DNA from: Escherichia coli
GTDB taxonomy: Bacteria; Pseudomonadota; Gammaproteobacteria; Enterobacterales; Enterobacteriaceae
Reading direction: 5' to 3' (one strand)
Assembly: GCF_048403405.1 (NCBI RefSeq)
Contig: NZ_CP183129.1
Length of the DNA stretch: 64,000 nt
Below, one piece after another: positions 12,939 through 62,508 of this stretch. Positions within the stretch are counted from its first letter, which is position 1. Every line of letters begins with the position of its first letter. The translations under genes and the position numbers were made by a program. Under the pieces are notes generated by a model, which saw nothing but the letters and a program-made list of their open reading frames with translations, was not told the DNA's origin and did no database searches.

Positions 12939-13095
12939 TGCGATCGACAGGCGTCGGAACGTCCGGCGTCTGATTATTAACAAAAACAGAATAGTCTATT
13001 GCCATTTGTATCATTTATGTTATCAGGCAGCAGGCGTATTCTCTCCCCATCGCGTTAATAAACGCCAAACAATTAAGACACTCTGGAATATAAAC

Positions 13096-13308
13096 ATGAA
13101 AACGATCATCGCAATTTTTACAGCTTCTCTTTTCTCTGTCGCGGCGTTTAACGCATCGGCACAAAGCGTGACAGCAACCGGTACAACACTGGATTCTGCG
13201 GAAGCGGTTATTGCGCAGAAAGCGAAAGAGATGAACGCCTCTGAATATAAAATTACCAGCGCTCGCATGGGCAATACCGTCACCATGAGCGCCGAACTGT
13301 ACAAATAA
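13096..13308 (+). CDS. small secreted DUF1471 (YhcN/BhsA-like) stress protein
   Basis: 70 aa from MKTIIAIFTASLFSVAAFNASA signal peptide; C-terminal ...KITSARMGNTVTMSAELYK typical of the family. Confidence 0.65.
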   Translation: MKTIIAIFTASLFSVAAFNASAQSVTATGTTLDSAEAVIAQKAKEMNASEYKITSARMGNTVTMSAELYK

Positions 13309-13356
13309 CCGCGCGAGGGACCCATTACGTAATTTGCTAAATATGCGCTGAATGCG

Positions 13357-13548
13357 TTGCCATTAAAAAACCGTATTGTAATGCCACCGATGACACGTTC
13401 TCGCGCGGGTGCGGGTGACGTTGCGATTGACATGATGGCGGAGTATTACGCGCAGCGCGCCAGTGCAGGACTTATCATCAGCGAAGGTACGCAAATCAGC
13501 AGAAGCGCTGCGCATAATTTTCCATGGCACGCTGATTTACTCCGGTAA
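13357..13548 (+). pseudogene. remnant of an Old-Yellow-Enzyme type NADH:flavin oxidoreductase (N-terminal ~60 codons only)
   Basis: LKNRIVMPPMTRSRAGAGDVAIDMMAEYYAQRASAGLIISEGTQIS matches OYE/NemA N-terminus; ORF truncates after 63 aa. Confidence 0.6.
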
Positions 13549-13774
13549 ATACACCAAAGCGCGCGCCGAAGCGGACTGTCAGATTTGATTGCATTTTGGC
13601 TACGCAACCGGTCAGTTGGAGTATGAAGTTGCTCACGAATAGCCTTAGCATCCGCAATTTCGTAGTGGGTCACCCGTGCAGGTTCTTTCTAATCTCAACA
13701 GCCTCTTCCAGAGAGGTTTTCAACTCATCAAAAAAACTCAATTTATACCTCGCCTTTGAGCCGTTTCGTCACGG

Positions 13775-17427: not shown

Positions 17428-17542
17428 TAAGGCTCCTGTAAAATCGTTCGAAGCAGGGAAAATAACGCATGAGGCTACCTTGTATCCATTGCTTCTGGCA
17501 ACATTAAGTCTCAAATTGTACTGACCCCAAAAAGTTGGACAG

Positions 17543-18394
17543 TTAAACACGAGGCATATAGGTCTGATTCCGATATTCAATTGGAGTCAGACCTTTTAAT
17601 TTCAGGCTAATTCTTCTGCTGTTGTAGTATTCAATATATTCCGTAACAGCATCCTTCAGTTCGCTTATATTACTGAACTCATCAAGATAAAAACACTCCG
17701 ACTTTAAGGTTCCAAAGAAACACTCCACCACAGCATTATCCAGACAATTGCCTTTTCTGGACATGCTTTGTTTAATACCATGTTCTTTAAGGATATTTTG
17801 ATATCTTCTCATACGATACTGCCATCCCTGGTCAGAGTGCAGAACAGGATGCTCGTGAGGATTAAGCTTTTTGAATGCCTGATCGAGCATATTCTCAACC
17901 ATGTTCATCACTGGTCTTTCCGAAAGGCTGTAAGAAATAACTTCGTTGTTGAAGAGATCTATTACTGGAGACAAATACAGCTTGCGCCCATTGACTACAA
18001 ATTCAGTAACATCGGTAACCCACTTCTCGTTTGGCCGCGTAGCCTTGAAATCTCTTTGGAGAACATTAGGGGCGGTTTGCCCTACCTCTCCTCTGTAAGA
18101 GCGGTATCGCTTGACCTTAATCGCTGCTTTAAGTGAGAGGGTTCCCATCAGGCGCTGAACAGCTTTATGGTTAATCTGTTTCCCTTCTCGATGAAGAGAC
18201 AGCGTTACCCTACGGTATCCGTATCGGCCTCTATTCTCGTGATAAATCTCACCAATACGCTTTTTAACGTCCGCATACTTGTCAGGCTTGCTGAGAGCCT
18301 TTAGATGGTAATAAAACGTACTGCGCGGTATCTCCGCAGCCCTGAGAAGCTCATCAAGAGGATAAAACTGCCTTAGCTCGTTGAGTACTTTTAC
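17543..18394 (-). CDS. insK: IS150 transposase orfB (InsK), expressed by -1 frameshift from orfA
   Basis: DDE-type integrase core (ORF track shows 201 aa C-terminal part from internal Met); upstream extent approximate. Confidence 0.8.
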
Positions 18395-18912
18395 TTTTTC
18401 GTGGGATGAGCTAAGGCTTTCAGCTTTTTTAGATACATAAGCCGCGTTTCAAGAAATCGAACTTGCCTTTCAAGATCCTCAATGCGTCGGTCTTTTGACA
18501 GCTCCAATGCTGATGCCGCTTTTTCTGGATCAACTGATATTGCAATGTTTCTTTTGGTGCCAATCTTGAGCGCGCGTAAACCAGCTTCTCCGCGCTCTTC
18601 ATAGACCTTCAGCCACCTGGCTACAGAACCACTACCAGCAAGCATAAAGTGAGCAGCAGCCTGATTAAGGGACATGTGCTGCTCGATCACAGCTTTCACG
18701 ACCTTAATACGCAACTCTGGATCAGCACTAACGCCTTTAGGTTTGGGAATTAAACCTTTTTCTCCATGTTTTTCATAGAGGGCAACCCATGTCCTGACCT
18801 GGGTTCGGGGGACACCAAAACGTGCCGAGATGATCCTGTAACCATCATCAGTTGTGAAGTAGTGATTCACGACTTCAAGGCGCTTTTCAAAAGGGTATTT
18901 TGGCTTTGACAT
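18391..18912 (-). CDS. insJ: IS150 transposase orfA (InsJ), HTH protein
   Basis: 173 aa MSKPKYPFEKRLEVVNHYFTTDDGYRIISARFGVPRTQVRTWVALYEKHG... Confidence 0.88.
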   Translation of the reverse strand: MSKPKYPFEKRLEVVNHYFTTDDGYRIISARFGVPRTQVRTWVALYEKHGEKGLIPKPKGVSADPELRIKVVKAVIEQHMSLNQAAAHFMLAGSGSVARWLKVYEERGEAGLRALKIGTKRNIAISVDPEKAASALELSKDRRIEDLERQVRFLETRLMYLKKLKALAHPTKK

Positions 18913-18978
18913 ATTAGGGGCTATTCCATTTCATCGTCCAACAAAATGGGTGCAGTACAAATTTTCAAAGGGTGGAAG

Positions 18979-33959: not shown

Positions 33960-34193
33960 ATGAAATCAAATGACACCCTAAAGTGGTTCCCCGCGCAGCT
34001 TCCTGAAGTCAGAATTATCCTGGGAGATGCTGTCGTGGAAGTGGCAAAACAGGGAAGACCTATCAATACCAGAACATTGCTTGATTACATTGAAGGAAAC
34101 ATAAAGAAAAAGTCATGGCTGGATAACAAAGAATTATTACAAACAGCGATATCAGTTCTTAAAGACAACCAAAATTTAAATGGTAAAGTGTAA
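33960..34193 (+). CDS. YdfK/YnaE-like prophage protein (so-called cold-shock-induced family; function unknown)
   Basis: 77 aa from MKSNDTLKWFPAQLPEVRIILG..., AAGGA RBS; recalled similarity to Rac/Qin ynaE/ydfK, which sit beside pin genes. Confidence 0.6.
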   Translation: MKSNDTLKWFPAQLPEVRIILGDAVVEVAKQGRPINTRTLLDYIEGNIKKKSWLDNKELLQTAISVLKDNQNLNGKV

Positions 34194-34573
34194 TAAACAC
34201 CCCCTGAAAAATAATTTTTCAATGCATTAAAAAATATCAACAACTACGTTATTCCGCAACAACCTACTTTTTTTACCATTTTTCCACTTTAACAACTTTT
34301 TGCTCCACTTTTCCAAGACCAAACAAATTGAAATCTGGCTAAAACAACATACAACACTATTATTCGTCTTTCTCGAGTCCGCCCGGAGTTCGAAAAACAA
34401 ACCGAGTTAAAGCCATTTTTCAAAAAATCGATTTTAGGTTACACCAAAATTACGGGACTGCATCCAAATTTGTTTATTTTCGAACGTATACATACAAATA
34501 TGTGCAATAATAAGCGAAATAATTTTTGGATATGCATTATGATATGTACACCAATTTCGTATAGAGTCTCACT

Positions 34574-35164
34574 ATGTCTCGAATTTTTGCTTACTGTCGG
34601 ATATCAACTCTGGATCAGACCACCGAAAATCAACGCCGGGAAATCGAAAGTGCAGGCTTTAAAATCAAACCTCAGCAAATAATCGAAGAACACATTAGCG
34701 GCTCAGCAGCAACCAGTGAGCGTCCTGGTTTTAACCGGTTGCTTGCTCGCCTGAAATGTGGTGATCAATTGATTGTGACAAAACTGGATCGCCTTGGTTG
34801 TAATGCAATGGATATCAGGAAAACAGTGGAACAACTGACCGAAACAGGTATCAGAGTGCATTGCTTAGCATTGGGGGGCATTGACCTGACCAGTCCAACA
34901 GGAAAAATGATGATGCAAGTAATTTCAGCAGTCGCTGAATTTGAACGAGACCTTTTACTTGAACGCACTCATTCCGGGATAGTAAGAGCCCGGGGCGCAG
35001 GGAAACGTTTTGGTCGACCACCTGTGTTAAATGAAGAACAGAAACAGGTGGTATTCGAACGAATTAAGTCAGGTGTAAGTATAAGTGCCATTGCCCGGGA
35101 ATTCAAAACCTCGCGGCAAACCATTTTAAGAGCCAAAGCAAAACTTCAGACACCTGACATATAA
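34574..35164 (+). CDS. pin: serine recombinase, Pin-type DNA invertase (PinR/PinQ-like)
   Basis: 196 aa; catalytic Ser region [15 protein letters not shown] motif, C-terminal HTH. Confidence 0.88.
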
Positions 35165-35391
35165 AAAATAATCTCGGTGTGAGATGCTTTACGTCTTCCA
35201 AGCCCCCTTCCTTGCCGTAAATGGAAAGATACATCTAATTATAGAATTTATATGTTTTACCCTACGGCAGTGCTGGCCATTCAATATCCTGTGCAGTTGA
35301 CGTATCAACACGGTTCAGCAACACCCGATACTTTTTCCAGGCTTCCAGCAACGGGGTTTCTTCCTCCGTTGCATATACAGCTCACCTTTTT

Positions 35392-35688
35392 TCACCCACG
35401 ATTAACCAACAGCCAGACCAGCAGACACGCCACCACCGGCACAGCAAAATCCATCAGGCTTGCCACATCCCACACGCGCGGATCAAAACCGCCCCACCAC
35501 GGCATGTTAATCCTCTTGCCATGCCCAAACATTTCAATCCAGCGATATTCCGCCTGGGTGTGTTCACGCGCAATGAAGAACGTACAACCGGCTATCGCCC
35601 CGTAAGCCCAGTTCCCGGTAAAAAGACCAACCAGTAGCTGCGCAGCCACAGCACAAAGCGCATGAAGGAAAGGTGTTATATCCATTTT
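35392..35688 (-). CDS. small 3-TM inner-membrane protein of unknown function (prophage accessory)
   Basis: MKMDITPFLHALCAVAAQLLVGLFTG...; three hydrophobic helices; between tail-fibre module and pin. Confidence 0.55.
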   Translation of the reverse strand, partial: KMDITPFLHALCAVAAQLLVGLFTGNWAYGAIAGCTFFIAREHTQAEYRWIEMFGHGKRINMPWWGGFDPRVWDVASLMDFAVPVVACLLVWLLVNRG

Positions 35689-35727
35689 CATCCTACCCAA
35701 TAAAACGGGGCGCTCGGCCCCTTGATA

Positions 35728-36768
35728 TTATTTAGACGCAAGCGCCGCCTCAATTGCAGATAATCTTTGTCTTAATTCTGCGTTTTCTTCTTCCAGTGCT
35801 GTTATTCTGTCGTCTGACTCTCTGGCTACCTGAACAAGCAAGCCAGTAACACCAGAATAATCTACTGTGTAATAACGTTCACCTTCTTCACCTTCCGATC
35901 CGCTTGCGCCGTCCTGATATTTCATTGCGGAACCTACAACTTCTGGGATTGCTTCCAGAGCTTCCTGTGCAATGACACCAGCATAGGGCATACCGTTTTC
36001 TTTAAGCGTGTATGTATAGCCGTTCATTTTACGGATGCGGTCGGTTGCATTATCGATCACCTGAATGTTGTCTTTCAGATCCCGGTCGGAATGCTGGTTA
36101 AATGCGGTGGCATGACATGCACCATTAACGCTTAACATATAGGTGTTATCGGTATTTTTTTGCGCATAGAACATATAAGCGCCACCATCAACACCGACTT
36201 CATAAACAACAGGACGGCTGGAGTTGCCCCACAATTGAGCAGTAACACCAGCATAAGCGGTTCCCTGTGTGTTTAATGTCATGGTTGACCCATGATTGGC
36301 ATATTTGATCTGTAATGTGTCGGTGTAATCAAATTTAATAAGCGCGTTACTTCCACGCTTGCTGTATGACATAAGGCAGTTACCCATTTTGAGGTATCCG
36401 CTGTCACCGGGAAAAATCATCGTACCGCCATAAAGGTTGGTAAAGTCCCAGCAAATGTTTGTCCCGTTATCGTTCAGGTTAAGGCGCGCCATTGCGTTAC
36501 CTGGACTGTCTATCCATTTTTTGAGGTATAGTTCGCAATACGCATCCTCAACACCTGCCGTCCTGTGAGTTGAGCGGAGTTTTCTCCCAAATATAGCTCC
36601 GCTAGTTGGCAATACCTGCTGATACCATGAAGCAGACCAGTCACCAACGATTTCATCTTTGCTGTCTACATATAATTTTGTTGCGTAGCTTCCTTGATCG
36701 TTTTTTAATTTGCTAACGTCGGATTTTAGCGTTTTGATGTCATCAGGAATTACTGTCGATGTAGCCAT
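35728..36768 (-). CDS. tail-fibre/tail-spike tip protein with C-terminal intramolecular chaperone (peptidase S74-like) domain
   Basis: 346 aa; C-terminus DLKDNIQVIDNATDRIRKMNGYTYTLKENGMPYAGVIAQEALEAIPEVV... typical of auto-cleaving chaperone domains of endosialidase and T5 pb1 type fibres. Confidence 0.7.
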   Translation of the reverse strand: MATSTVIPDDIKTLKSDVSKLKNDQGSYATKLYVDSKDEIVGDWSASWYQQVLPTSGAIFGRKLRSTHRTAGVEDAYCELYLKKWIDSPGNAMARLNLNDNGTNICWDFTNLYGGTMIFPGDSGYLKMGNCLMSYSKRGSNALIKFDYTDTLQIKYANHGSTMTLNTQGTAYAGVTAQLWGNSSRPVVYEVGVDGGAYMFYAQKNTDNTYMLSVNGACHATAFNQHSDRDLKDNIQVIDNATDRIRKMNGYTYTLKENGMPYAGVIAQEALEAIPEVVGSAMKYQDGASGSEGEEGERYYTVDYSGVTGLLVQVARESDDRITALEEENAELRQRLSAIEAALASK

Positions 36769-36777
36769 TTTTCTTCC

Positions 36778-37059
36778 TCACATCCAGCCACGAAGTTGAT
36801 GCTCAACAGCAACCACGTATTCATCGAATAATGACGATATTTGCGAATCATTAATGATGCGCACGTTTACAAAATATCCGTCTTCCTTAACACATACCGG
36901 TTCGCCATCTTCAGTCAGTTCTCCGGTTTCTTTGTACACGTTACCTATCACGTCAATAAGAATATCATCCTGCATCAACTCGTCATCATAATAGCCAATG
37001 CTCTCCATAAAGGCCGAAAAGTCGGCCCTGTCGGGAAATTTGAGTGTTAAATCTTTCAT
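36778..37059 (-). CDS. hypothetical 93-aa acidic protein between fibre genes (possible fibre assembly/adaptor)
   Basis: ORF with 1-nt overlap (ATGA) with stf stop; no recognised motif. Confidence 0.45.
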   Translation of the reverse strand: MKDLTLKFPDRADFSAFMESIGYYDDELMQDDILIDVIGNVYKETGELTEDGEPVCVKEDGYFVNVRIINDSQISSLFDEYVVAVEHQLRGWM

Positions 37060-39434
37060 TAGATTGACTCCCCCACCTGAGCATCAGTCAATGCCTTGTG
37101 CCATATTCTGAAATTCCTTACATGACCAAATAAATGACGTAACCCGGCTGTAGTCTGGCCTCCAATACGGATAATTGCGGTGTTCTGAATACAGGACCAT
37201 GTGGTTTTTGTTTCGCTGGATATACGCCCGTTACTTACTGCGCATGTAGACTGATCAGACTTTACACGCATCCCCATAACCATTTTTTCAAGTGATGCAT
37301 TTTCGTTTATCCGTCTGTTAGACCCACCAATATCGCAATAAGGAAATCCGTCGTAATCTGCTGAAGAACCGAAGCCAAGAATAATAGCCGCTCCGGTTTG
37401 ATGACCGCCGGTATCAAAAACACGCGGTGCTGCATTTGGCGTTTTATACCAGTTCTTATGTACCTCACAAAGAACCGTAAAAGGAAGATTATAAAGATTA
37501 TTCTTAATGGGAACTGTGACTATATCGCTTGCGCGGGTCGCCGCCGTCGTTCCTGATATAATAAAAGATGATACACAAGGCCCATTTTCTACTTGTGGGG
37601 TGGCCAGATAAATATAGTCACCAGATACGGTTGCCCCGCCCTGCTTAGGAGAATACTGTATCTGAGAACCTATTTTTAACTCCCCATCAATTGCCTGAAT
37701 TGTTGCCTCTGCAAAAATCCATCCGATAACTTCGTCCTTTCTGACTCTCGCTGTAATCCTTGAGGCAGCGCCGCCTGTCATATTAATTTCAAGCGTTTGT
37801 GTATCAATATACACATCACCAAGAAAAGTTGTTGCGCTACCGTCATATTTATCAAATCGGATACGCAACCTTACCTGCAGTTCTGTTTTAAAACGACATG
37901 AGGTTGTCACGTATTTATTATCGCCTGAGACATCAACTGACTTTGTTGCAGCAATTGATGCCATATTAATGGCTGAGGTTTGCCCAATCAGAGAATCGTT
38001 ACAGACAAACTTTCCATAGGTAAAACCAAAACTATCCGTCCCGGTTTCGGGAACATCCATATTTGACGATCGCCCCCAACTGGCAGGGCTTTCCGAATTG
38101 AGCATGTAGTTCGTTCTTTGCCCCTCAATAAGCAGGCCATCACGTTCAAACCGTGGCTCGTCAATGGCAGCCTCTGTCAGCACACCAGATTTATTAATAT
38201 AGGTTGCTTTCGATGCGCGTTTAAACTTAACAACCTTGTCGCCAGGCATCGTTATTTCATCATCACCAATAACAATCTTTTTATATGACGGCGAAAAGCC
38301 CGTAATCATATCCAGCGAATCGTTAAATGGTATCCACACATCAGGCAGCGGCTGTAAGACATATTTATACGGCTCCGCAGCCTGGCTTGCGTACTCTCTG
38401 GCTGCATCTTCGCTTGCTTTAGCTGCCGTCTGGCTTGCTGCCGATGCTTTCGCTGAGTTCGCAGCCGCTGTTTCGCTCACCTTTGCGTTGGTTTCACTGG
38501 TTTTTGCTGCTTTTTGACTGTTAGCTGATGCAGTGGCAGAAGCAGCAGCCGCGCTTGCAGAACCAGCTGCAGCACTCTCGCTTTCGGCTGCTGCATCCTG
38601 ACTGCTTTTCGCCGCAGTTTCGCTGGCTTTGGCATTCGTTTCGCTGGTCTTCGCTGCCGTCTGGCTGGACTTTGCGTTAGTTTCACTCGTCTTCGCTGCT
38701 TTCTGACTGTTAGCCGCAGCAGTTGCTGATCCAGCAGCTGAAGTCGCAGAACCGGCTGCCGCGCTCTCGCTTTCGGCTGCTGCATCCTGACTGCTTTTCG
38801 CCGCAGTTTCACTGGCTTTGGCATTCGTTTCGCTGGTTTTCGCTGCCGTCTGGCTGGACTTTGCGTTGGTTTCGCTCGTCTTTGCGGCTGTCTCGCTATT
38901 TTTCGCGTTGGTTTCTGATTTTTTGGCTGCTGTCGCGGAGTTTTCTGATGCAGTCTGTGAGGTCGCTGCCGCCTGTGCACTATTAGCTGCATTCGTTTCT
39001 GAGGTTTTCGCCGCGTTCTTCGATGATGCCGCTGCAGTTTCGGATTTCTTTGCCGCCGCTGCGCTCTGAGAGGCGGCTTCGGCGTTGCGTGCCGCTTCTT
39101 CCACCATTTCCTCAAAACGACGCAATGCCTCCGGCATGACATCATCTTCCGTCATGGCACCGAGAAAATCATTCAGCGTACCTGGTCTGGAACCTTCATA
39201 GACGGTAATGGTTCCGGCATGTGAAGGCGGAAAACCTTCAACAAGCAGGATAACGCTGTACTGGCCATACTCAACATCCATGCTGTAACGCCCGGCTTCA
39301 TCCGGATTTTCAGAGGCCACCGTGTTCACCAGTACCGTGGTGCTGTTACGCTTTGCCTTCAGTTGAATAGTGCAGTTCTGTATTGGTTTTCCCGCACCAT
39401 CTTTCAGCACACCTGAGATTTTTACTGCTGCCAT
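37059..39434 (-). CDS. stf: side tail fibre protein Stf (lambda-type N-terminus, divergent C-terminal receptor-binding part)
   Basis: N-terminus MAAVKISGVLKDGAGKPIQNCTIQLKAKRNSTTV... matches lambda Stf; Ala/Ser/Thr/Lys-rich repeats; C-terminal part resembles a lectin/LamG-like domain. Confidence 0.85.
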   Translation of the reverse strand: MAAVKISGVLKDGAGKPIQNCTIQLKAKRNSTTVLVNTVASENPDEAGRYSMDVEYGQYSVILLVEGFPPSHAGTITVYEGSRPGTLNDFLGAMTEDDVMPEALRRFEEMVEEAARNAEAASQSAAAAKKSETAAASSKNAAKTSETNAANSAQAAATSQTASENSATAAKKSETNAKNSETAAKTSETNAKSSQTAAKTSETNAKASETAAKSSQDAAAESESAAAGSATSAAGSATAAANSQKAAKTSETNAKSSQTAAKTSETNAKASETAAKSSQDAAAESESAAAGSASAAAASATASANSQKAAKTSETNAKVSETAAANSAKASAASQTAAKASEDAAREYASQAAEPYKYVLQPLPDVWIPFNDSLDMITGFSPSYKKIVIGDDEITMPGDKVVKFKRASKATYINKSGVLTEAAIDEPRFERDGLLIEGQRTNYMLNSESPASWGRSSNMDVPETGTDSFGFTYGKFVCNDSLIGQTSAINMASIAATKSVDVSGDNKYVTTSCRFKTELQVRLRIRFDKYDGSATTFLGDVYIDTQTLEINMTGGAASRITARVRKDEVIGWIFAEATIQAIDGELKIGSQIQYSPKQGGATVSGDYIYLATPQVENGPCVSSFIISGTTAATRASDIVTVPIKNNLYNLPFTVLCEVHKNWYKTPNAAPRVFDTGGHQTGAAIILGFGSSADYDGFPYCDIGGSNRRINENASLEKMVMGMRVKSDQSTCAVSNGRISSETKTTWSCIQNTAIIRIGGQTTAGLRHLFGHVRNFRIWHKALTDAQVGESI
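38560..38890. repeat. tandem duplication (about 186-bp unit) inside stf coding region
   Basis: Near-identical DNA blocks ...CTCGCTTTCGGCTGCTGCATCCTGACTGCTTTTCGCCGCAGTTTC... at about 38562-38700 and 38748-38890; protein repeat SETNAKSSQTAAKTSETNAKASETAAKSSQDAAAESESAAAGSA occurs twice. Confidence 0.8.
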
Positions 39435-39498
39435 ATCCACTCCACAAAAAAGCCCGCCTGAACCGGCGGGCTGTCATAACACTGTGTTACCTGGCTAA

Positions 39499-40098
39499 TC
39501 AGAATTTATAACCGACACCCACGATGAAACCGTCAGTGCGCCAGTCACCACTGCCGGAACCTTCATAAGCAAGGTCAATGGCCACGGATTCGGTCGGGTT
39601 AAACTGCACGCCAGCCCCCCACGCCAGAGACGTGTTGCTGTGGCGACCGTCATCACTTCCGGTCAGCACATCGTGCGTTTTCCCCTTGTTGTCAGTTACG
39701 CGGAGATAATCCCCGGAGAAGGTCGACACACGGCTGTAAGCCATACCCGCCATCGCATAAGCACTGAACCATTCATTCACGCGTACAGATGGCCCCGCCA
39801 TCATGCTGAACCAGCGGTTACGCACGGAATCTTCATGCCAGCGGGTATCGCTGTAATGCGTTTTTTGCTCATCTTTGGCATTGGCATAACTGAATGACGT
39901 CACCAGCCCCAGCGTGTCCGTAAATTCATAACGGTATTTCACGTTAATGCCCTTCAGGTCATCACTGCCTGGCATATCAGTATGGGTCTGAAGATACCCG
40001 GCGCTTAGTGTGGACTGATGCTCTGCTGCGCTCGCTGGCGTACCAGCGGCAACCAGCCAGACTACTGCGGACAGAATAACAGCACATAATTTACGCAT
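39499..40098 (-). CDS. lom: Lom outer-membrane protein (Ail/Lom family)
   Basis: 199 aa, signal peptide, beta-barrel ending ...GFIVGVGYKF; position between J and stf as in lambda. Confidence 0.88.
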   Translation of the reverse strand: MRKLCAVILSAVVWLVAAGTPASAAEHQSTLSAGYLQTHTDMPGSDDLKGINVKYRYEFTDTLGLVTSFSYANAKDEQKTHYSDTRWHEDSVRNRWFSMMAGPSVRVNEWFSAYAMAGMAYSRVSTFSGDYLRVTDNKGKTHDVLTGSDDGRHSNTSLAWGAGVQFNPTESVAIDLAYEGSGSGDWRTDGFIVGVGYKF

Positions 40099-40165
40099 AA
40101 TTACCTCTCGCTTTTCTGCAATAAAAAAGGCGTCATTTCTGACGCCCGTATTGGGGTTATAAAAT

Positions 40166-43100
40166 TCAGCTGATACTGATGCCTGCGGTGGCTTTCTTCA
40201 TCACCACAACCAGCAAATCGCTGATACTTGCTGTGGGATACCAGTCATTTACCAGCCATGCTGACACCGAAAACTCCAGCGTCATGTGACCGTGACCGGC
40301 AGGCATATCAATAACGCCACTGTAAATCAGCGTATTATCCAGCGCGGTACGGTTATAAATTTCAGCACCGTTTTTCCGCACTATCAGACGGCATGAGGAG
40401 TAAATATCAGTATGCTCTCTCTCATGTTTAGCGCCGCTGAATGCCACCGCCGGAATAACAATCTGCCGGTCAAACGGCTGATCGTCATAAATCCTGACGG
40501 TAATGGTCCCTGATGGCCACCGTTCCGGTGCACGGGAGTCCCGGGGGAAAGCTTTGCCCACTGTTTTAACGAGATCGCCTTCAATCTGGTTCGCGGACAG
40601 TTTTCCCAGAACCCGGCAGTTCTCGTTAATCGTGACGTTGTTGAGCGTCCCGGAGTTCGCATTCACGTTACCGCTGATATCGGCATTTTTCGCCGTCAGC
40701 CGCCCGTCCGGTGTCAGGGAAAATGCCGGAGGATTACCGCCGCTGGTAATGGTGGGAGCCGTCAGATATTTCAGGAACACTTCATTCATAAATATCTGAT
40801 CGCCCTGACCAACAAACATCGGCTTTGTGTTGCCATTCGCAGGATTAACCATCGCAATCCTGTCCGCCGCCAGCAGCACCTGACTCTGCATACCGTCAGG
40901 AGTATTCTCAATACCGGCACCAATACCCGCGATATAAAGGCGTCCGTCCTGCATCTGCTGCAGCTTCACAGCCCACATGCTGTTCAGGTTATTATTTGTA
41001 TCAACCTGAACCTTCTGTATCTGCTGAATTACCGCACTCTGGTCTTCCAGTTTATTATTGACGGTCTGCGTGATTTCATTGCTGACATCCGTAATGGACG
41101 TCCTGATTTCAGCCAGGTCAGGCGCAAGCTGACCGTTATCAATCTGCGTCCACAGCTCCTGAGCCAGATGGCTTTTCCCTATCTCGCCTTTGAAAAAATC
41201 CAGATAGCCGGATGCATCATCACTCGGCTGGCCAACAGCCTCCACAAATGCCGATTTGCCAACGGTGTTCACACTGCGGATGTAAAAATAATAATCATGG
41301 CCCGGTTTGATATTGATACTGGTGGCTATCCAGTACAGCGCCGTGCCAAGATAGCGGGCTGTGGTTTCAACCTGCCTGATATCGGTAATCCGCGTTTCCG
41401 AGAACCAGAACTCAAACTGTACCGTCGGATCATAAACCGCAAGATGCGGCGTGGCAGTTATCTGAAAATAGCCCGGCGTCAGCTCAATCCGCGACGGCGC
41501 TGCCGGTGCGGCAATCCGGAACGATACCGATGCCGGATCGCCCTGCTGTCCCCACGCATTTACCGCCCGGACCGTCAGCGTGTAACGCCCCAGCGCCAGT
41601 TGCCTGAAGCGGTATGTGGTTTCCGTCGTCCTGGCCGTGCTGACCAGCCGCTCACTGCCGTCGTCCGCTGCCACGGTCAGGCGAAGCAGGAAGCTCACGC
41701 CCTTCACCACCTTCGGCGTGTCCCAGCGGGCCAGTACCTGATACTCCCCGCTGTCTGCGGTGACTTCGGCAGTCAGGTGCTGCACCGCTGGCGGCGTGAC
41801 ACCATTCACCGTGCCGCTCTGGTCACCGTCAAAGTGCGCCCCGTTATCCACGATGGCTTCTTTCTCCGGTACATGCTGCACGGCGGTGATGGCATACGTG
41901 CCATCGTCGTTCTCACGGATACTCACACAGCGGAACAGGCGCTGGCGCAGCGTCGGCAGCTTCAGCCCCCATACGCTGTATTCAGCAACACTGTCAGGAA
42001 CACGGCTCACTTTTACCTTCACGCCGTCGGTGACGGACTGAACCTCCACGCTGACCGGATTGCCACTTCCGTCAACCAGGCTTATCAGCGTGGTACCGGA
42101 GGATGGCAGCGTGATTTCACGGTCGAGCGTCAGCGTCCGGGTCTGGCTGTTCACCGCCAGTACACGACCACCGGTGCTGATACCGGCATAGTCATCATCA
42201 CAGATTTCAATAACATCGCCCGGTACATGGCGAAGCCCTTCTGCGCCGACGCTGAAATCCACGGTCTGCGTTTCCAGCAGTTCCGTTTTAATCAGCCACA
42301 GCCCGGCGCGGTGTGCCTGCCCCCGGCTGGTACAGCCAAAGGCATCCATCTTCGTGACGTTACGACCGTAACGGGCAATGGCCTGCGTGTCCTCCACAAG
42401 CTCTGTCGCCGTCTCCCAGCCGTTGTTCGGGTCAATCCAGTTCACCTCAACGGCATTATGGCGGTCCTTCAGGGCGCTGAAGCTGTAGCGGAACGGCGCG
42501 CCATCATCCGGCATCACCACATTACTGCGGTTATAGGTCCACACCTTATCCGACGGTCGGTCCTGCACGAATGTCAGCGTCTGCCCGTTCCATACCGGCA
42601 TACAGCGCATCGCCGAGCAGAAATCACTGAGCACATCCCACGCCTTGCGCTGTGTGGCCAGGTACGCATTACAGGTGATGCGCGGCTCCGTGCCGCCAAA
42701 ACCATCCGGCACCGACTGGTCGCAATACTGGCTGATGACATACAGCGCCCATTTATCCACATCTGCCGCACCAAGACGTTTCCCCATGCCGTAGCGCGGA
42801 TGGGTCAGCATATCCCACAGACACCAGGCCATGTTGTTGCTGTATGCTGGCTTAAACGTTCCGTCCCAGATACCGCTGTATTGCCGCGTCTGCGGGTTAT
42901 AGTTCGACGGCACCTGCAGAATGCGCCCGCGAAGATGATAATTACGGCTCACCTGCTGGCTGCCGAACTGCTCCGAATCCACCTGCACGCCGACCAGTGC
43001 CGTGTTCGGGTAGCACTGTTTCACATCGATGATTTCGGTGTATGACGACCAGAGCGTTTTGTTCTGCAGCTGGTCTGTGGTGCTGTCCGGCGTCATTCTG

Positions 43101-43645
43101 CGCATCCGGATATTAAACGGGCGCGGCGGCAGGTTATCCACCACCACCGAGGCCAGATACTGTGAGGTGGTTTTGCCCTTAATGGTGATGTCTTTTTCCG
43201 TCACCCAGCCACCATTACGCTGTATCTGAACCAGCAGGCGAACTTCCGACAGATTCCGGTCCCCCTTTGAGGTGGTTTCCACCAGTGCCTGCACACCGAA
43301 GGTAAAGCGCAGACGGTCGATGTTTGCAGACGTGATGGTCCGGGTAATCGGCGTGTCGTACTTCACTTCCGTACCCAGCACCGTCTCGGAGCCGGAGGAT
43401 TCAAATCCCTCCGGCGGTGTCTGCTCCTGCTCACCTGCCCGGAACACCACCGTGACACCGGAGATATTGGTATTCCCCTCACTGTCCAGCACTGGCGTAC
43501 TGTTCAGCAGCACACTTTTTAATCCGTCCACCGGACCTTCAACCGGCCCTTCACTGATGGCGTCTATCACGCTCAGCATCTGGGATGATTTCAGGTTGTC
43601 CTTCGCTTCGCGCGGGGTATGCCCCTTACTGCTGCCTTTACCCAT
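40166..43645 (-). CDS. J: tail tip/host-specificity protein J
   Basis: 1159 aa, N-terminus [20 protein letters not shown]... as lambda J; C-terminal ~150 aa appears divergent from my recollection of lambda. Confidence 0.92.
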
Positions 43646-50195: not shown

Positions 50196-50267
50196 ATCGT
50201 CCTCACATTTCAGGTGATGCTGCCAACTTACTGATTTAGTGTATGATGGTGTTTTTGAGGTGCTCCA

Positions 50268-50543
50268 GTGGCTTCTGTTTCTATCAGCTGTCCCTCCTGT
50301 TCAGCTACTGACGGGGTGGTGCGTAACGGCAAAAGCACCGCCGGACATCAGCGCTATCTCTGCTCTCACTGCCGTAAAACATGGCAACTGCAGTTCACTT
50401 ACACCGCTTCTCAACCCGGTACGCACCAGAAAATCATTGATATGGCCATGAATGGCGTTGGATGCCGGGCAACCGCCCGCATTATGGGCGTTGGCCTCAA
50501 CACGATTTTCCGCCATTTAAAAAACTCAGGCCGCAGTCGGTAA
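50268..50543 (+). CDS. insA: IS1 InsA
   Basis: 91 aa [43 protein letters not shown]... Confidence 0.9.
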
Positions 50544-50965
50544 CCTCGCGCATACAGCCGGGCAGTGACGTCATCGTCTGCGCGGAAATGGACGAACAGT
50601 GGGGATACGTCGGGGCTAAATCGCGCCAGCGCTGGCTGTTTTACGCGTATGACAGGCTCCGGAAGACGGTTGTTGCGCACGTATTCGGTGAACGCACTCT
50701 GGCCACACTGGAGCGTCTTCTAAGCCTGCTGTCGGCCTTTGAGGTCGTGGTATGGATGACGGATGGCTGGCCGCTGTATGAATCCCGCCTGAAGGGAAAG
50801 CTGCACGTAATCAGCAAGCGTTACACTCAGCGAATTGAGCGGCATAACCTGAATCTGAGACAACATCTGGCAAGGCTGGGACGGAAGTCACTGTCGTTCT
50901 CAAAATCGGTGGAGCTGCATGACAAGGTCATCGGGCATTATCTGAACATAAAACACTATCAGTAA
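50462..50965 (+). CDS. insB: IS1 InsB (transposase, made as InsAB by frameshift)
   Basis: 167 aa ORF overlapping insA in -1 frame. Confidence 0.9.
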
Positions 50966-51375
50966 GTTGGAGTCATTACCCACATTTCATAGGTAATGAC
51001 ATAAGTCAGATCGGCTGAACTCCACAGGCCCGCATCATCGTCGCGCCGGTAGTCATAGCCGCTGGCCACCATACTGGTGATCAAATCTGACAGTGCCGGG
51101 ATATCACTCATCACCGGATAAATCCGGGACTCCATCCACTCATCCAGCTCTGAATCCGGCACCTGAGCAGGCAGGAAAACTTCGATATGCAGCTCCGCCT
51201 GCCAGGTATCGCTGTCCAGCTCTTCGCCCGTGTATTCAGCGCCGGTGAGATAAACGGCAACTGCCGGAAAATCCGCCTCATCAAAAACAGCGGGGCGACC
51301 ATCAAAAAACGTCGCCCCGGTGTCATGCTTCTCCAGTGCATCCAGTACGGCTGCACGGAGTTCAGTATGTTTCAT
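50959..51375 (-). CDS. U: tail terminator protein U; C-terminus altered by IS1 (7 extra codons read into IS1)
   Basis: 138 aa [31 protein letters not shown]...; ends ...ITYEM then WVMTPTY encoded by the IS1 end. Confidence 0.88.
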
Positions 51376-51950
51376 CGCTTTATTACCATTCTCAGTTGAT
51401 GCTGCAGCGCATAGCCCAGCTCTTTCGGAAGACGCTCACGCCGTATCCGCTCAATATTTTGTTTAAACGCCGTGGTCAGCGGCACCGCCATCGGGATTTT
51501 CACTACATCAATGGGGTAACGGTTTTTCCCGGCCACACGCTGCATGACATGCCAGCGGCCATTTTTCAGTTGCTGAATAAACGCGCCGGGAATACGACGG
51601 TTTCCCACCACAAGCACGCTGCCGCCACCTTTCAGGGCTGAACGCTGCCCCTTTTTACGACGCCTGCGTCGGGACAGGACAATCCGCGCGTTACCCAGCT
51701 TGATTACGGGCAAATCCCCCCGGTTAACCTTGATTCTGGCCTGCGGATTTTTAACCGTAGCCCTTTTCAGCCTGGCCCTTTCCTTTACCAGTTTCCGGCG
51801 TACCTTTGTCTCACGGGCAACCTGTGACGCCGACTGCGATATCGCGGATGAAGCAACGCGGTTAATGGCCATTGCGGCGGCACCAGGCACCGCCGTTTTG
51901 CTGATACGGCTGAGGTTTTCAACGGCCTGCTCAAGACCTTTTATGGCCAT
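51372..51950 (-). CDS. Z: tail completion protein Z
   Basis: 192 aa, lambda Z-like. Confidence 0.88.
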   Translation of the reverse strand: MAIKGLEQAVENLSRISKTAVPGAAAMAINRVASSAISQSASQVARETKVRRKLVKERARLKRATVKNPQARIKVNRGDLPVIKLGNARIVLSRRRRRKKGQRSALKGGGSVLVVGNRRIPGAFIQQLKNGRWHVMQRVAGKNRYPIDVVKIPMAVPLTTAFKQNIERIRRERLPKELGYALQHQLRMVIKR

Positions 51951-51961
51951 ACATCCCCCTT

Positions 51962-52315
51962 TCAGCGGCGACGGTTAACGGCAGGCGGTACGCCCCGCCC
52001 AAGCCAGAGATGACAGCTTCCGCCATCATCCGGCGAAACACGATCTATCCAGAAGTTTTCCTCACCGATGGTCAGCGTGTCTCCACGCCGCAGTTGCCGC
52101 ACATCATCAGTCCGGACAAACAGGGACGGGCTGGAGCCTTCAACGCGCACGCCCTGTCCGGCATAGCTGATATTTTCAGGGTCATCAAAAACACCACGTA
52201 TCACAGCACCGGACTGCTCACCGGATGTCATGGTGGCTGACGTTCCCATGTACCCGCGTATCGTTTCATCAGCGCGGGCAATGGCAGCATCGAACAGGTT
52301 ATCGAAATCAGCCAC
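51962..52315 (-). CDS. FII: head-tail connector protein FII
   Basis: 117 aa MADFDNLFDAAIARADETIRGYMG... Confidence 0.88.
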   Translation of the reverse strand: MADFDNLFDAAIARADETIRGYMGTSATMTSGEQSGAVIRGVFDDPENISYAGQGVRVEGSSPSLFVRTDDVRQLRRGDTLTIGEENFWIDRVSPDDGGSCHLWLGRGVPPAVNRRR

Positions 52316-52326
52316 AGCGCCTCCCG

Positions 52327-52725
52327 TTATTGCATTCTGGCCAGGCCACGTTCTGTCATTTCGGCTGCCACACCGGCAGAGACACGAAACGCCGTTCCCG
52401 GCAGCACAAATGCCACAGGTTTATCCCGCGTGGCGTGAAGTGCATCAGTATGCAGCGTCACCAGTGCCACGACCGTGACCAGTTCAGCCGTATCCTGAAT
52501 CACGGTATCCGGCTGCGCTGATACAGCCTCATTTTCATGCCCGGTCAGCACATTTTCCGGGCTGAGAGGGGTGTCCTGACCGGCAGTGTCACCCGTGTCA
52601 TCAAGCTCTTCTTCCAGCTCTGCCACACGGAGCGCCAGTTCTTCTTTCGTCCCCGTCAGGCTGACATCACGGTTCAGTTGTTCACCCAGCGAGCGGAGAC
52701 GGGCAATCAGTTCATCTTTCGTCAT
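52327..52725 (-). CDS. FI: DNA packaging protein FI
   Basis: 132 aa from MTKDELIARLRSLGEQLNRDV; ORF track start is 13 codons upstream. Confidence 0.85.
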   Translation of the reverse strand: MTKDELIARLRSLGEQLNRDVSLTGTKEELALRVAELEEELDDTGDTAGQDTPLSPENVLTGHENEAVSAQPDTVIQDTAELVTVVALVTLHTDALHATRDKPVAFVLPGTAFRVSAGVAAEMTERGLARMQ

Positions 52726-52766
52726 GGACTTCTCCACAGAGAGACAATGGCCCCGAAGGGCCATGA

Positions 52767-53792
52767 TTACGCCAGTTGTACGGACACGAACTCATCAGGA
52801 TCAGCCAGCAGCATCAGCGGTGCTGACTGAATCATGGTGAACTCACGCGCCGGATCGCCGGTGGTCACCCAGTTTTTCGGGTAACGGGCAGAGGCGTTAA
52901 TGCCTTCGCGCTGTGCGTCCGCATCCTGAATGCAGCCATAGGTGCGCAGACCGCGAGCCTGAGTGTTCCCCAGCACCATCGTGTTGTCCGGCAGGAAGTT
53001 CTTTTTGACGCCGTTTTCCACGTACTGTCCGGAATACACGACGATGGCCACATCGCCATACATTCCCTTATAGGACACCGCTTTGCCCAGGTCTTTTACC
53101 GCTGTCTCCAGCTCGGAATGAGAGCCGCGACGGGTATCCAGCTTCTCCTTGACGGCTTTGAAGGAACGGAACAGCGCCCAGCCTTTCGGGTCAAACACGA
53201 TGATATTCACCACACCGCTGGCGTTCAGCGCGTAGGCTTCGATATCGTCGGTCGGGTCATACGTGGACTTGTCACGCTTGCTCCACTCCGTGCCGCCGGA
53301 CTGCGTGATGTTATTCGCCTCACTGCGGCCCATATCCACCTCAACCGGATCGAAGGCTTCACCGGTCATGGTATATTTGCCCTTAAGCACGGCAGAAACT
53401 GCCTGCATCTCTTCGACCTGGGCAATCGCCAGATTTTCATCCAGCATATTCTGCCGAATAATACGGCGACGACGGTAAGCCGGGTCAGCCAGGTTCTGCG
53501 GATCTTCATCCGGCAGGCGACGCAGGGTCATCTGCGGATTCACCTCATGCTTGGGTTTGACATAACCCGGCGTAAATTCAGAGGTGGAGCCGCCACGGGA
53601 TCGGATAACCTCACCGGAAACAATCGGCGAAACGTACAGCGCCATGTTTACCAGTCCCGGAATTTGTGAGAGATAGACTTTTTCCGTGGTGAAAGGATAG
53701 GTTTCACGGAAAAACAGGCGCAGAAACAGCGGATCGAACTTAAAGTGATGCTGGGTCGATGCCAGTAATTCTGCAGTTGTATATACAGACAT
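52767..53792 (-). CDS. E: major capsid protein E
   Basis: 341 aa MSVYTTAELLASTQHHFKFDPLFLRLFFRE..., lambda E. Confidence 0.95.
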   Translation of the reverse strand: MSVYTTAELLASTQHHFKFDPLFLRLFFRETYPFTTEKVYLSQIPGLVNMALYVSPIVSGEVIRSRGGSTSEFTPGYVKPKHEVNPQMTLRRLPDEDPQNLADPAYRRRRIIRQNMLDENLAIAQVEEMQAVSAVLKGKYTMTGEAFDPVEVDMGRSEANNITQSGGTEWSKRDKSTYDPTDDIEAYALNASGVVNIIVFDPKGWALFRSFKAVKEKLDTRRGSHSELETAVKDLGKAVSYKGMYGDVAIVVYSGQYVENGVKKNFLPDNTMVLGNTQARGLRTYGCIQDADAQREGINASARYPKNWVTTGDPAREFTMIQSAPLMLLADPDEFVSVQLA

Positions 53793-53847
53793 AAATTATT
53801 TCCATAAAAAAAGCCGCACAGGCGGCCTTTGTTGATGAAGGGGAAGA

Positions 53848-54180
53848 TTAAACGATGCTGATTGCCGTTCCGGCAAACGCGGTCCGTTTTTTCGTCTCGT
53901 CGCTGGCAGCCTCCGGCCAGAGCACATCCTCATAACGGAACGTGCCGGACTTGTAGAACGTCAGTGTGGTGCTGGTCTGGTCAACAGCAACCGCCAGAAT
54001 GCCAACGGCTGCACCGTCGGTGGTGCCATCCCACACAACCAGCTTACGGGTAGTGCCATCCAGCATCAGTGGGGTCATTGCAGGCGTTTTCGCACTCAAT
54101 CCGCCAGGCGCAATTGCTGTATGAGCCGGATCACTGTTACCCAGCGGCTGGTAATGGTTAAACTCTTCTTTTGTCGCCAT
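53848..54180 (-). CDS. D: head decoration protein D
   Basis: 110 aa [27 protein letters not shown]... Confidence 0.93.
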
Positions 54181-54189
54181 AACTGCCTC

Positions 54190-55501
54190 TTATACCGGTA
54201 AAGCTTCAGGTGTATTAAGTAATTCTTTATTGGTATCAGATGCCAGGTTACCTGCAGCCAGCGGTGCCGCTGCACCCTGCATCAGACGATCCAGCGCAGT
54301 GTCACTGCGCGCCTGTGCACTCTGTGGTGCTGCGGCCAGAATGCGGCGGGCCGTTTCCACGGTCATTCCGGGGGTTTCTGCCAGAACGCGCGCCTGTTCT
54401 TCGCGTCCGTGAGCCTCCTCACAGTTGAGGATCCCCATAATGCGGCTGTTTTCTGCCGCAACCGCTGCGGTGATCTGTGCGTTCACATCCGGCTGCGCCG
54501 CGCTGGCGTTTTCGCCCTCCTTCGCAGGCTCCACGGTGGTGATGTCAGCCTGCGAAGCAGTGGCTGAAACAGTTGTTGATTGAGTCTCTTTGGTCATTCG
54601 CCCTCCTGAGAGACGGGATTTACGTGCATCCAGTGCATCACGCATGACGGTGATCGCATCGGTGCTGTTAACAAGTTCATCAGCCAGTCCGGCATCAATG
54701 GCCTCCTGACCGCTGTACACTGCAGCCTCGGTATCCAGCACAGCCTGCACAGACAGGCCGGTATATGCCGACACCTTCTGCGCAAACATCTGGCGGGTTG
54801 CATCCATCCGGGACTGCAGTGTTTCCCGGACGTCATCCGGAAGATGGCTGTAGGGGTTGCCATCCACCTTATGGCTGCCGCTGTAAATCAGCGTGATTTC
54901 CACGCCCTGTTTCTCCAGCGCAGCACCGTAATTGCTGTGAGCCATCATGACGCCGATGGAGCCTGTCCGGGCGGTCTGCGTGACCAGGCGCCGGGAAGCG
55001 GCACTGGCAAGCAACTGACCTGCACTGCAGTTCATGTCGTTGGCAAGCGCCCATACCGGTTTTATGTCACGCACACGGGCGATGATGTCAGCGCAGTCAA
55101 ATGCCCCCGCCACCATCCCGCCGGGCGTGTCCATATCGAGCAGAATGCCGTCCACCATCGGATCGCTGGCAGCCTGTTGCAGACGGGCGATAATGCCGTT
55201 GTAACCGGTCATCCCCGAATACGGCTGCAGCGCCCGCGTCCGGCTGACCAGCGTGCCGGAAACCGGCAGCACGGCGATGCCGTTCATGACCTGATAACTG
55301 CGGGCCTGTCGTGGCCCGCCATCATCACCGGATAACGCCAGCGTCGCGGGTGCCTCTCCGGCAGCCAAGCTGTCACCGGACACCGCATCCGTCAGGCGGC
55401 TGATCCCAAGCTGACCTGCAAGTGCACAAAAGAAAACCCGCGCATAGGCGGGTTCAAGCATCAGCGGCTCATTAAAGGCCATGCTGGCAATATGCGGGAG
55501 A

Positions 55502-55509
<8 letters not shown>
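54190..55509 (-). CDS. C: prohead protease/scaffold C (with nested Nu3 scaffold frame)
   Basis: 439 aa from GTG start (VTAELRNLPHIASMAFNEPLM...); S49/ClpP-like protease core. Confidence 0.9.
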
Positions 55510-59202
<3,693 letters not shown>

Positions 59203-59228
<26 letters not shown>

Positions 59229-59748
59229 TCAGCAACCCCGGTATCAGTTCATCCAGCGCGGCTGCTTTGTTCATGGCTTTGATGATATCCCGTTTCAGGA
59301 AATCAACATGTCGGTTTTCCAGTTCCGGAAAACGCCGCTGCACCGACAGGGGGATCCCGTCGAGAATACTGGCAATTTCACCTGCGATCCGCGACAGCAC
59401 GAAAGTACAGAATGCGGTTTCCACCACTTCAGCGGAGTCTCTGGCATTTTTCAGCTCCTGTGCGTCGGCCTGCGCACGCGTAAGTCGATGGCGTTCGTAC
59501 TCAATAGTCCCTGGCTGGAGATCTGTCTCGCTGGCCTGCCGCAGTTCTTCAACTTCCCGGCGCAGCTTTTCGTTCTCAATTTCAGCATCCCTTTCGGCAT
59601 ACCATTTTATGACGGCGGCAGAGTCATAAAGCACCTCATTACCCTTGCCACCGCCTCGCAGAACGGGCATTCCCTGTTCCTGCCAGTTCTGAATGGTACG
59701 GATACTCGCACCGAAAATGTCAGCCAGCTGCTTTTTGTTGACTTCCAT
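59203..59748 (-). CDS. Nu1: terminase small subunit Nu1
   Basis: 181 aa MEVNKKQLADIFGASIRTIQNWQEQGMPVLRGGGKGNEVLYD... Confidence 0.95.
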
Positions 59749-59849
59749 TGTTCATTCCACGGACAAAAACAGAGAAAGGAAACGACAGAGGCCAAAAAGC
59801 TCGCTTTCAGCACCTGTCGTTTCCTTTCTTTTCAGAGGGTATTTTAAAT

Positions 59850-59960
59850 AAAAACATTAAGTTATGACGAAGAAGAACGGAAACGCCTTAAACCGGAAAA
59901 TTTTCATAAATAGCGAAAACCCGCGAGGTCGCCGCCCCGTAACCTGTCGGATCGCCGGAA
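59850..59960 (-). other. lambda cos site (cosB-cosN-cosQ); 12-nt cohesive end at 59926-59937
   Basis: Minus strand reads ...CCGACAGGTTACG-GGGCGGCGACCT-CGCGGGTTTTCGCTATTTATGAAAATTTTCCGG...; cosN lies 189 bp from Nu1 start as in lambda. Confidence 0.9.
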
Positions 59961-61660: not shown

Positions 61661-61931
61661 AATGTTACCGTAATATGTGAGTATCCATCGACTAGACACT
61701 AAGCAAAAAAGCTCCCGAAGGAGCCTTCATTTTCACTTTCTTAAATCTAACGACAGACGGCTAACATTTAAGTATTGTGAAATATTATCAAATGTAATCA
61801 TCATTGATTTACAAAAGATACATTTTGCCCCGAAAGGATTCCTGTCAGAAACATCAAAAGATGATGTTCTATACTGAGAACCATGGCAACACGGGCATCT
61901 AAAGTGAATATGGTTTGTAATATTTTCTACC

Positions 61932-62144
61932 TCAAAGTGCCACTACATGAACAGCCGCGGGGCCTTTAGGTCCGTTCTCAATACCAAATTCGACTTCCTG
62001 ATTCTCAGTTAACGTTTTGAAATCGTTGCTCTGAATAGCTGAGAAATGGACAAACACATCTTTGCTACCATCTTTCGGCGTGATGAAACCAAAACCTTTT
62101 TCAGGGTTAAACCATTTCACTAAACCAGTCATTTTGTTAGACAT
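61932..62144 (-). CDS. cold-shock-domain protein (CspA family; CspI/CspB-like prophage copy)
   Basis: [38 protein letters not shown]... with RNP1 motif KGFGFI. Confidence 0.9.
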
Positions 62145-62147
62145 CAT

Positions 62148-62508
62148 TATTACCTTTTGAAGAAGTTAGCCCTTGGGCAGAATGGTCCGAAAAAAAAATA
62201 TCAGAGAGAAAAACCAACAAGGAAATCTCAAGAGGTACAAATAATAAATTTATAACAATGACTGCTTCAGATAATTTTGTAACAAACCAGAACACCATTA
62301 ACGCATGATTAACCAACCATAGCAAGGATTACTTTTGTAAAGAAAAACACACGAATGAAACAATAGCTTTATTTATTAATAAAACGTGTCATTCTGTCTA
62401 ATGACCTTTTATCTTACCCTTAAGATTTCAAGGATTTTGACTCATGGAAGAGTCCTTTTTATTTAAATTTCACATTCAGCGCTAAAAATAATCCGATTTA
62501 ATATTAAT
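62148..62508 (-). promoter_or_regulatory. long AT-rich 5' leader of the csp gene
   Basis: About 360 bp non-coding AT-rich region upstream of the csp start, as typical for CspA-family mRNAs. Confidence 0.45.

Follow-up and report, generated by a model that had tools for sequence, protein, structure and literature searches.

A 189-bp in-frame tandem duplication in the shaft of an stf-like side tail fibre gene of an Escherichia coli lambdoid prophage

Background

A side tail fibre gene of the stf type, found in the 64,000-nucleotide stretch of Escherichia coli DNA analyzed here (the window), encodes a shaft in which a segment rich in alanine, serine, threonine and lysine appears to occur twice. 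Fibre shafts of this kind are built from heptads of similar sequence throughout, and the locus therefore raises the question of whether the two segments are copies of one duplicated unit or simply two stretches of a repetitive array, and, if they are copies, how they arose and whether they still exchange sequence with each other.

Results and discussion

The fibre gene and its surroundings

The gene lies at positions 37059-39434 on the minus strand and is annotated as a coding sequence of 791 amino acids (WP_001560746.1) in an identical RefSeq locus. The mechanically called open reading frame, 37059-39440, starts at a GTG at 39440, two codons upstream of the annotated start, which gives 793 amino acids; residue numbers throughout refer to this longer frame. 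The Pfam family PF08400, described as the prophage tail fibre N-terminal domain, matched the product with an E-value of 5.9e-67 (224 bits, for a cut-off of 26.6). This match covers residues 5-134 (39039-39428, minus strand), which contain the N-terminal collar, or tail-attachment, domain and a linker. Residues 5-97 aligned with the collar domain whose structure has been solved for Ur-lambda Stf (PDB 9e7m/9mgh, E = 1.4e-49), and the PHROGs tail protein family phrog_1419 matched the product over its full length. Upstream are the tail-module gene J (40166-43645, minus strand) and, between J and stf, lom (39499-40098, minus strand). The order J-lom-stf, with all three genes on the minus strand, is the position of an Stf-type gene in a lambdoid tail module. 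PF08400 and the 9e7m match identify the collar as that of an Stf-type fibre, which is predicted to dock at the gpV/gpM junction. The original prediction, made from the DNA letters, had already called the gene stf, and PF08400, the 9e7m collar match and the position after J and lom all bear this out.

The C-terminal half of the product matched the NF048003 "GTA/head spike fibre" domain and phrog_5939. A gp37-like distal tip with a Tfa chaperone encoded downstream, which would be typical of the Stf type, was not found in this gene; the sole tfa near stf is a truncated pseudogene, and a separate 346-amino-acid fibre protein with an S74 chaperone domain is encoded after stf. Judged by these matches, the protein is of the lambda Stf type in its two N-terminal modules, the collar and the rod, and distally a mosaic variant. 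The element that carries it is a lambdoid E. coli prophage. A search for inverted repeats between which the neighbouring invertase could invert a segment of the fibre locus found no convincing pair.

A discrete unit of nine heptads

Tandem Repeats Finder reported a repeat with a period of 189 nt at 38481-38893 (2.2 copies, 87% matches, 0% indels, score 651), and a second repeat search returned a 189-nt pair at a spacing of 189. The first unit (u1) consists of residues 188-250, encoded at 38691-38879 on the minus strand, and has the sequence TSETNAKSSQTAAKTSETNAKASETAAKSSQDAAAESESAAAGSATSAAGSATAAANSQKAAK. The second unit (u2), residues 251-313 (38502-38690, minus strand), repeats the 63 residues of u1 with four substitutions. 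A single heptad, TSETNAK, follows as a partial third copy (residues 314-320; 38481-38501, minus strand) and is the source of the fractional copy number. Each unit is made up of nine heptads, which read TSETNAK SSQTAAK TSETNAK ASETAAK SSQDAAA ESESAAA GSAxSAA xSATAxA NSQKAAK. In other words, the fibre shaft contains a 189-bp, 63-residue tandem duplication that is in frame and head to tail.

Over their 189 nucleotides the units show 22 differences (88.4% identity), and they have 59 of 63 residues in common. Identity rises to 93% over a best-conserved stretch of 142 nt, and the longest exact run that the copies share is 47 nt, at 38764-38810 in u1 (minus strand) and 38575-38621 in u2. At the level of codons there were 18 differences, 14 of them synonymous and four non-synonymous, which indicates that the stf reading frame is the frame under selection. 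Other reading frames are also open over the repeat: one of 222 amino acids at 38477-39145 on the minus strand and three of 83-93 amino acids on the plus strand. These were considered as possible genes and set aside as by-products of the bias toward GCN, AGC and ACN codons, the differences between the units being mostly synonymous in the stf frame. Lambda has the same kind of antisense open reading frame, which is annotated there as orf206b.

The whole 735-bp heptad region has a 21-nt and 42-nt periodicity, and some similarity would be expected between any two segments in phase. When the region 38300-39100 was compared with itself, an offset of 189 gave the best agreement (60%), and an offset of 21 was next (50%). 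The difference was far larger for a 168-nt block within the repeat, which was 89% identical to its counterpart at offset 189 and 39-58% identical at all of the 26 other offsets that were multiples of 21. Because 189 alone among the in-phase offsets reaches 89%, the duplication is a discrete unit superimposed on the general 21/42-nt periodicity and is not heptad low complexity. This self-comparison had been proposed beforehand as the check on the repeat, and it returned a discrete unit of 189 nt and more than low-complexity similarity. Several parts of the original description consequently stand, among them the tandem arrangement and the Ala/Ser/Thr/Lys-rich shaft segment, now resolved into nine heptads per block. 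The period of about 186 bp does not, as the measured value is 189 bp. The term "near-identical" overstated the likeness of the blocks, which is 88% over the full unit; the interval originally outlined, 38560-38890, takes in the best-conserved 142-nt stretch of both copies, where identity reaches 93%.

Predicted fold of the shaft

The units are part of an unbroken array of 35 heptads, residues 111-355 (38376-39110, minus strand), that is predicted to form a proximal trimeric coiled-coil shaft. The second position of the heptad is serine in 32 of 35 cases and the sixth is alanine in 32 of 35. The heptad periodicity is uninterrupted, as in alpha-helical coiled coils, but the a and d positions carry alanine and serine in place of large hydrophobic residues, which is atypical of a classical hydrophobic coiled coil. 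A long proximal rod after a short linker is characteristic of the Stf type and was found here in the 35 heptads, in a helical AlphaFold2 model, and in an alignment with lambda Stf residues 102-356 that stays in phase with one 14-residue gap. In lambda gpStf, residues 102-393 form the proximal coiled-coil domain of a three-chain fibre (Yu et al., 2025, PMC12617516). The start of the trimeric bundle was resolved there by cryo-EM, and the remainder was modelled by AlphaFold3 and cryo-ET (Yu et al., PMC12617516).

The AlphaFold2 model of a monomer fragment (residues 95-377) was helical over residues 98-358. The pLDDT was 86-94 over fragment residues 11-120, which correspond to residues 105-214 of the open reading frame, and the pTM of this monomer was 0.31. 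At fragment residues 137-144, in the glycine-containing heptads of u1, the helix broke and the chain folded back. A hinge at this site was considered, and the fold-back was regarded as an artefact of modelling a monomer. Among solved structures, the heptads matched the Klebsiella depolymerases Depo32 (7VZ3/7VYV) and RAD2 DpK2 (7LZJ), weakly, with E-values of 8e-4 to 3e-3. These matches were followed in search of an experimental structure for Ser/Ala heptads, and the Depo32 map provided none: the cryo-EM reconstruction does not show the protein up to residue 185, a part that comprises the N-terminal anchor and the helical-bundle domain and includes the matching heptads.

Homology to Ur-lambda Stf, the heptad pattern and the AlphaFold2 model together give good support to a trimeric coiled coil as the probable fold of the shaft segment, with the trimeric state taken by analogy from Ur-lambda Stf (PMC12617516). 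A unit comprises a whole number of heptads, so the gain or loss of a copy would keep the coiled coil in register. The rise per residue in a coiled coil is about 0.148 nm. One unit would thus account for about 9.4 nm of shaft (63 x ~0.148 nm).

Occurrence in phages and genomes

The full stf gene was found at 96-97% identity, and with equal spans, in the four phages HannyBb, Tritos, 2G7b and PhiR63_1 (five GenBank records), all of which are viable, plaque-forming phages. Six complete E. coli genomes, each assembled independently, carry the 6.2-kb stf locus with 100% identity. The presence of the two-unit gene in viable phages and its complete identity in six genomes indicate that it is not an assembly artefact. 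In a set of 170 sequences, made up of 169 related protein clusters at 90% identity and the window's own protein, 113 had two unit starts and 112 had them at a spacing of exactly 63 amino acids. 75-mers specific to u1 and to u2 were each found in about 1015 of 5426 complete genomes, counts that cross-matches and multiple prophages per genome prevent from being read as numbers of alleles; protein clusters were used in their place for the length-class counts given below.

As a source of the window, strain 2013C-4282 was considered and rejected. A 951-bp stf probe (38250-39200) matched strain 2013C-4282 at 100%, while the chromosomal backbone of that strain was only 95-96% identical and the head-gene region had no match. 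Other genomes, NZ_OX030728.1 among them, matched at 100% in both the chromosomal backbone and the stf locus.

Shaft length and a one-unit allele

The rod, measured from LRRF to PLPDVW in the 99 clusters with the same flanks, was 258 amino acids long in 46, 195 (63 shorter) in nine, and 153 (105 shorter) in 28. Forty-seven of the 53 clusters with a variant length differed by a multiple of seven, and the six out-of-phase lengths were single clusters. The preponderance of multiples of seven matches the constraint that register imposes on a coiled coil. A comparison with stf alleles of related prophages had been proposed beforehand as a check.

One of the shorter alleles, from E. coli CB209 (L002; NZ_OZ392441.1, WP_097735230.1), is 2187 nt long, which is 2376 minus 189, and its alignment was explained by a single 189-nt gap whose breakpoint could be placed anywhere in the conserved core. 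Its one unit has the bases of u1 at nucleotides 6 and 12 and those of u2 from there on; it is a u1/u2 hybrid. Beyond the junction, the 3' side matched the two-unit allele of HannyBb at 100% over 1620 nt, and the 561 nt on the 5' side had 14 mismatches with it. The hybrid unit and the 3' identity are the signature of unequal homologous recombination, which requires head-to-tail in-frame copies such as those found here and leaves an allele one unit shorter. The length variation by recombination that had been foreseen for this shaft is thus borne out by a natural, near-identical allele.

Units grouped by position and not by allele: identity across alleles was 94% between copies of u1, 96% between copies of u2, and 84-88% between u1 and u2. 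Since paralogous units have diverged by 12-16% and orthologous units by 4-6%, and since the 3' side is identical, the CB209 allele is probably a recent derivative of a two-unit allele; that is, the change would have run from two units to one. The reciprocal product of unequal exchange, a three-unit gene, was not found. When 5.8 billion proteins were searched with a synthetic three-unit sequence, all those returned had two units or fewer, and none of the 170 sequences had three unit starts; rare three-unit genes could have escaped notice through the word pre-filter and the clustering at 90%.

The core of the units varied in a second way. The typical core is KNSQ(V/N/A)AAA(Q/E) in u1 and K(N/S)SQDAAA(Q/E) in u2, which held for most alleles. 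In the window allele both units read KSSQDAAAE, a combination that, among the 112 two-unit sequences with exact spacing, occurs only in the window's own protein and one other. HannyBb has u1-specific bases (KNSQV) at four sites, and u1 of the window has the u2 state at all of them, within the 47-nt identical run. The 47-nt core is probably a patch of intragenic conversion from u2 to u1, and such a patch most simply accounts for the near-identical look of the core in the two copies.

Proposed origin and alternative explanations

We consider the most probable explanation, at about 85%, to be an old in-frame duplication of nine heptads in a coiled-coil shaft whose copies still recombine by unequal exchange and conversion. 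A 63-residue module is duplicated head to tail in the proximal, predicted alpha-helical shaft of a lambda-Stf-type fibre. The event is old, given that the paralogous units differ by 12-16%, mostly at synonymous sites, and the orthologous units of different phages by 4-6%. Gain or loss of a copy would lengthen or shorten the trimeric rod with no change of register, and the two copies still offer enough homology for unequal homologous recombination, which we infer to be the machinery at work. A one-unit allele would result from crossing over that joins u1 of one allele to u2 of a second, and gene conversion, overwriting one copy with the other, would produce the identical 47-nt core of the window allele.

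Each of the other explanations accounts for part of these data. If the repetition were only that of any two segments in a low-complexity array, the 735-bp region with its 21/42-nt periodicity and the 39-58% identity at any in-phase offset would be accounted for, but not an offset of 189 with 88-93% identity and no indels, which none of the 26 other in-phase offsets equalled, nor a 63-amino-acid spacing that is conserved across alleles; the comparison of offsets led us to reject this reading, which has next to no probability left. Misassembly that had created the second copy or collapsed a third is just as improbable. The stf gene does break some short-read assemblies, and many database entries for proteins of its family, taken from short contigs, are labelled "partial". 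The original prediction had warned of such errors in short-read data, but 22 of 189 nucleotides differ between the copies, the 47-nt exact run is shorter than the usual read lengths and the larger k-mers of assemblers, and the six complete genomes with a 100% identical 6.2-kb locus were assembled separately. Five phage records with equal spans and the exact spacing in 112 of 170 sequences argue against it as well. Slippage had also been suggested, and a contingency locus would carry this further, with frequent, reversible slipped-strand switching of copy number within a population and phase-variable fibre length. Alleles one unit apart do exist, as this would require. Contingency loci of this kind, however, have many identical short units that switch expression or frame, and here there are only two copies, of 189 nt and 88% identity, with nothing in them that points to slippage, and length changes stay in frame. 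The units of different phages are still 94-96% identical to their orthologues, against 84-88% between paralogues, three-unit alleles were not found by the protein query or among the 170 sequences, and the CB209 allele switches its flanking haplotype at the junction, which points to a crossover between alleles. Phase variation is accordingly very unlikely at this locus.

Selection on length itself is an unlikely explanation too, though one with more in its favour. Selection may have fitted shafts of 20, 26 and 35 heptads to how thick the surface layers of the host are, the duplication having been fixed for longer reach and better adsorption. Each of the discrete in-phase classes contains a number of clusters (46, 28 and nine), and the side fibres of Ur-lambda are longer than its central fibre and probably make the first contact with the cell (PMC12617516). 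The same classes could equally be the products of neutral recombination, if any in-phase length can assemble, and the cluster counts are not independent events. A bolder version, which we hold to be somewhat more doubtful still, is that the 63-residue module is a selected length cassette: lambdoid prophages would change among discrete side-fibre lengths (about 20, 26 or 35 heptads) as recombination adds, removes or converts whole nine-heptad units, which would tune the reach of the receptor-binding tip through O-antigen or capsule. Its conserved repetitive DNA would also be a preferred crossover site at which phages exchange the anchoring and receptor-binding halves of the fibre.

Significance and comparison with known systems

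The repeat has little consequence for basic biology. Phage fibre genes have long been known to contain internal repeats and to recombine as mosaics, and the gene was already annotated; the duplication in the window is an ordinary further example. In practical terms it is of modest but real use. For annotators, it means that 189-bp differences in length between stf alleles are genuine and are not assembly errors. Stf is also the scaffold of engineered lambda delivery particles (PMC11338833), and a natural 63-residue module that preserves register, together with three natural shaft lengths, offers ready designs for relating fibre length to adsorption.

Among known systems, the N-terminal part resembles Stf of Ur-lambda. 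The collar matches at an E-value of 1e-49 and is identical at most of residues 5-97, the gene likewise comes after J and lom, and the same kind of Ser/Ala/Thr/Lys heptad rod follows the linker. The rod of lambda Stf (292 amino acids), however, lacks the 63-residue tandem duplication. The C-terminal half of the window protein is not the gp37-like, OmpC-binding tip of lambda Stf and has the NF048003 domain instead, and the stf of the window is followed by a separate 346-amino-acid S74 fibre protein and not by an intact tfa. The Stf proteins of HannyBb, Tritos, 2G7b and PhiR63_1 have the same two units as the window protein, but their u1 keeps its own specific core (KNSQV...Q), while the u1 core of the window is u2-like. 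The one-unit stf of E. coli CB209 resembles that of the window both in the gene and in the genes downstream, and differs in being 189 bp shorter, with a single hybrid unit. Depo32 and RAD2 DpK2 have SE(T/N)(N/A)AK heptads like those of the window shaft but differ in being tailspikes with a beta-helix enzyme domain.

Conservation of prophage modules

Comparison with E. coli strain 2013C-4282 showed that the degree of conservation differed between the chromosome and the prophage. The chromosomal backbone from creC to yjjU (1-30000) was just 95-96% identical to this strain, whereas identity was 98% across the prophage tail module (30001-50212) and 100% across the 6.2 kb locus of the side tail fibre gene, stf (34000-40200). 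One and the same prophage tail module is thus found in divergent E. coli lineages. The head and packaging region (50213-59896), for the most part, had no close match in the 2013C-4282 prophage, in which gpW is interrupted by an IS3 element. The prophage in the window is thus a mosaic whose head module differs from that of the 2013C-4282 prophage.

Two chromosomal segments also varied. One, a variable island of approximately 4.2 kb between ettA and nadR (9553-13774), gave no match by megablast to its counterpart in 2013C-4282, where nadS and a RelE/ParE toxin gene are located. The other, approximately 1.44 kb long (17518-18957), separates the radA/serB region from the ytjB region and contains two ORFs of 201 and 173 amino acids. 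It was missing from 2013C-4282, and alignments to the other best-matching E. coli genomes likewise ended at its left edge; this segment is possibly an insertion sequence.

A cspA thermoregulator (Rfam RF01766) was predicted on the minus strand at 61886-62292, where it precedes a cspI-like cold-shock gene carried by the prophage; it scored 112 bits, above the gathering score of 78.

Organization of the fibre locus

The heptad array of the Stf shaft (38236-39145, both strands) is also spanned by long ORFs without stops in the alternative frames and in antisense: one of 222 amino acids on the minus strand and others of 83-93 amino acids on the plus strand. The hypothetical orf206b of lambda is annotated at the equivalent antisense position. 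The additional ORFs in the window are most likely artefacts of composition.

The distal half of Stf (residues ~370-793; 37059-38330) was not gp37-like. It matched phrog_5939, and residues 435-635 matched the NCBIfam 'phage head spike fiber (GTA_spike_fiber) domain' (NF048003, E 1e-12). Within 35728-37059, downstream of stf, were a 93-amino acid ORF (phrog_1361) and the gene for a second tail fibre protein of 346 amino acids, which carries an S74 intramolecular-chaperone domain (PF13884, E 5e-14) at its C terminus. These downstream genes suggest a two-component or branched side fibre, as opposed to the pairing of Stf with Tfa in lambda.

Within 34574-35372, a gene for a DNA-invertase-type serine recombinase (196 amino acids; Resolvase and HTH_7 domains) adjoins a truncated tail-fibre-assembly pseudogene (35262-35372, minus strand). 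No inverted repeats bounding a possible invertible segment were found flanking this locus, so the pair probably represents what is left of a fibre-switching cassette of the Pin/Gin kind. The recombinase and truncated pseudogene are arranged in the same way in HannyBb, a viable lambdoid phage.
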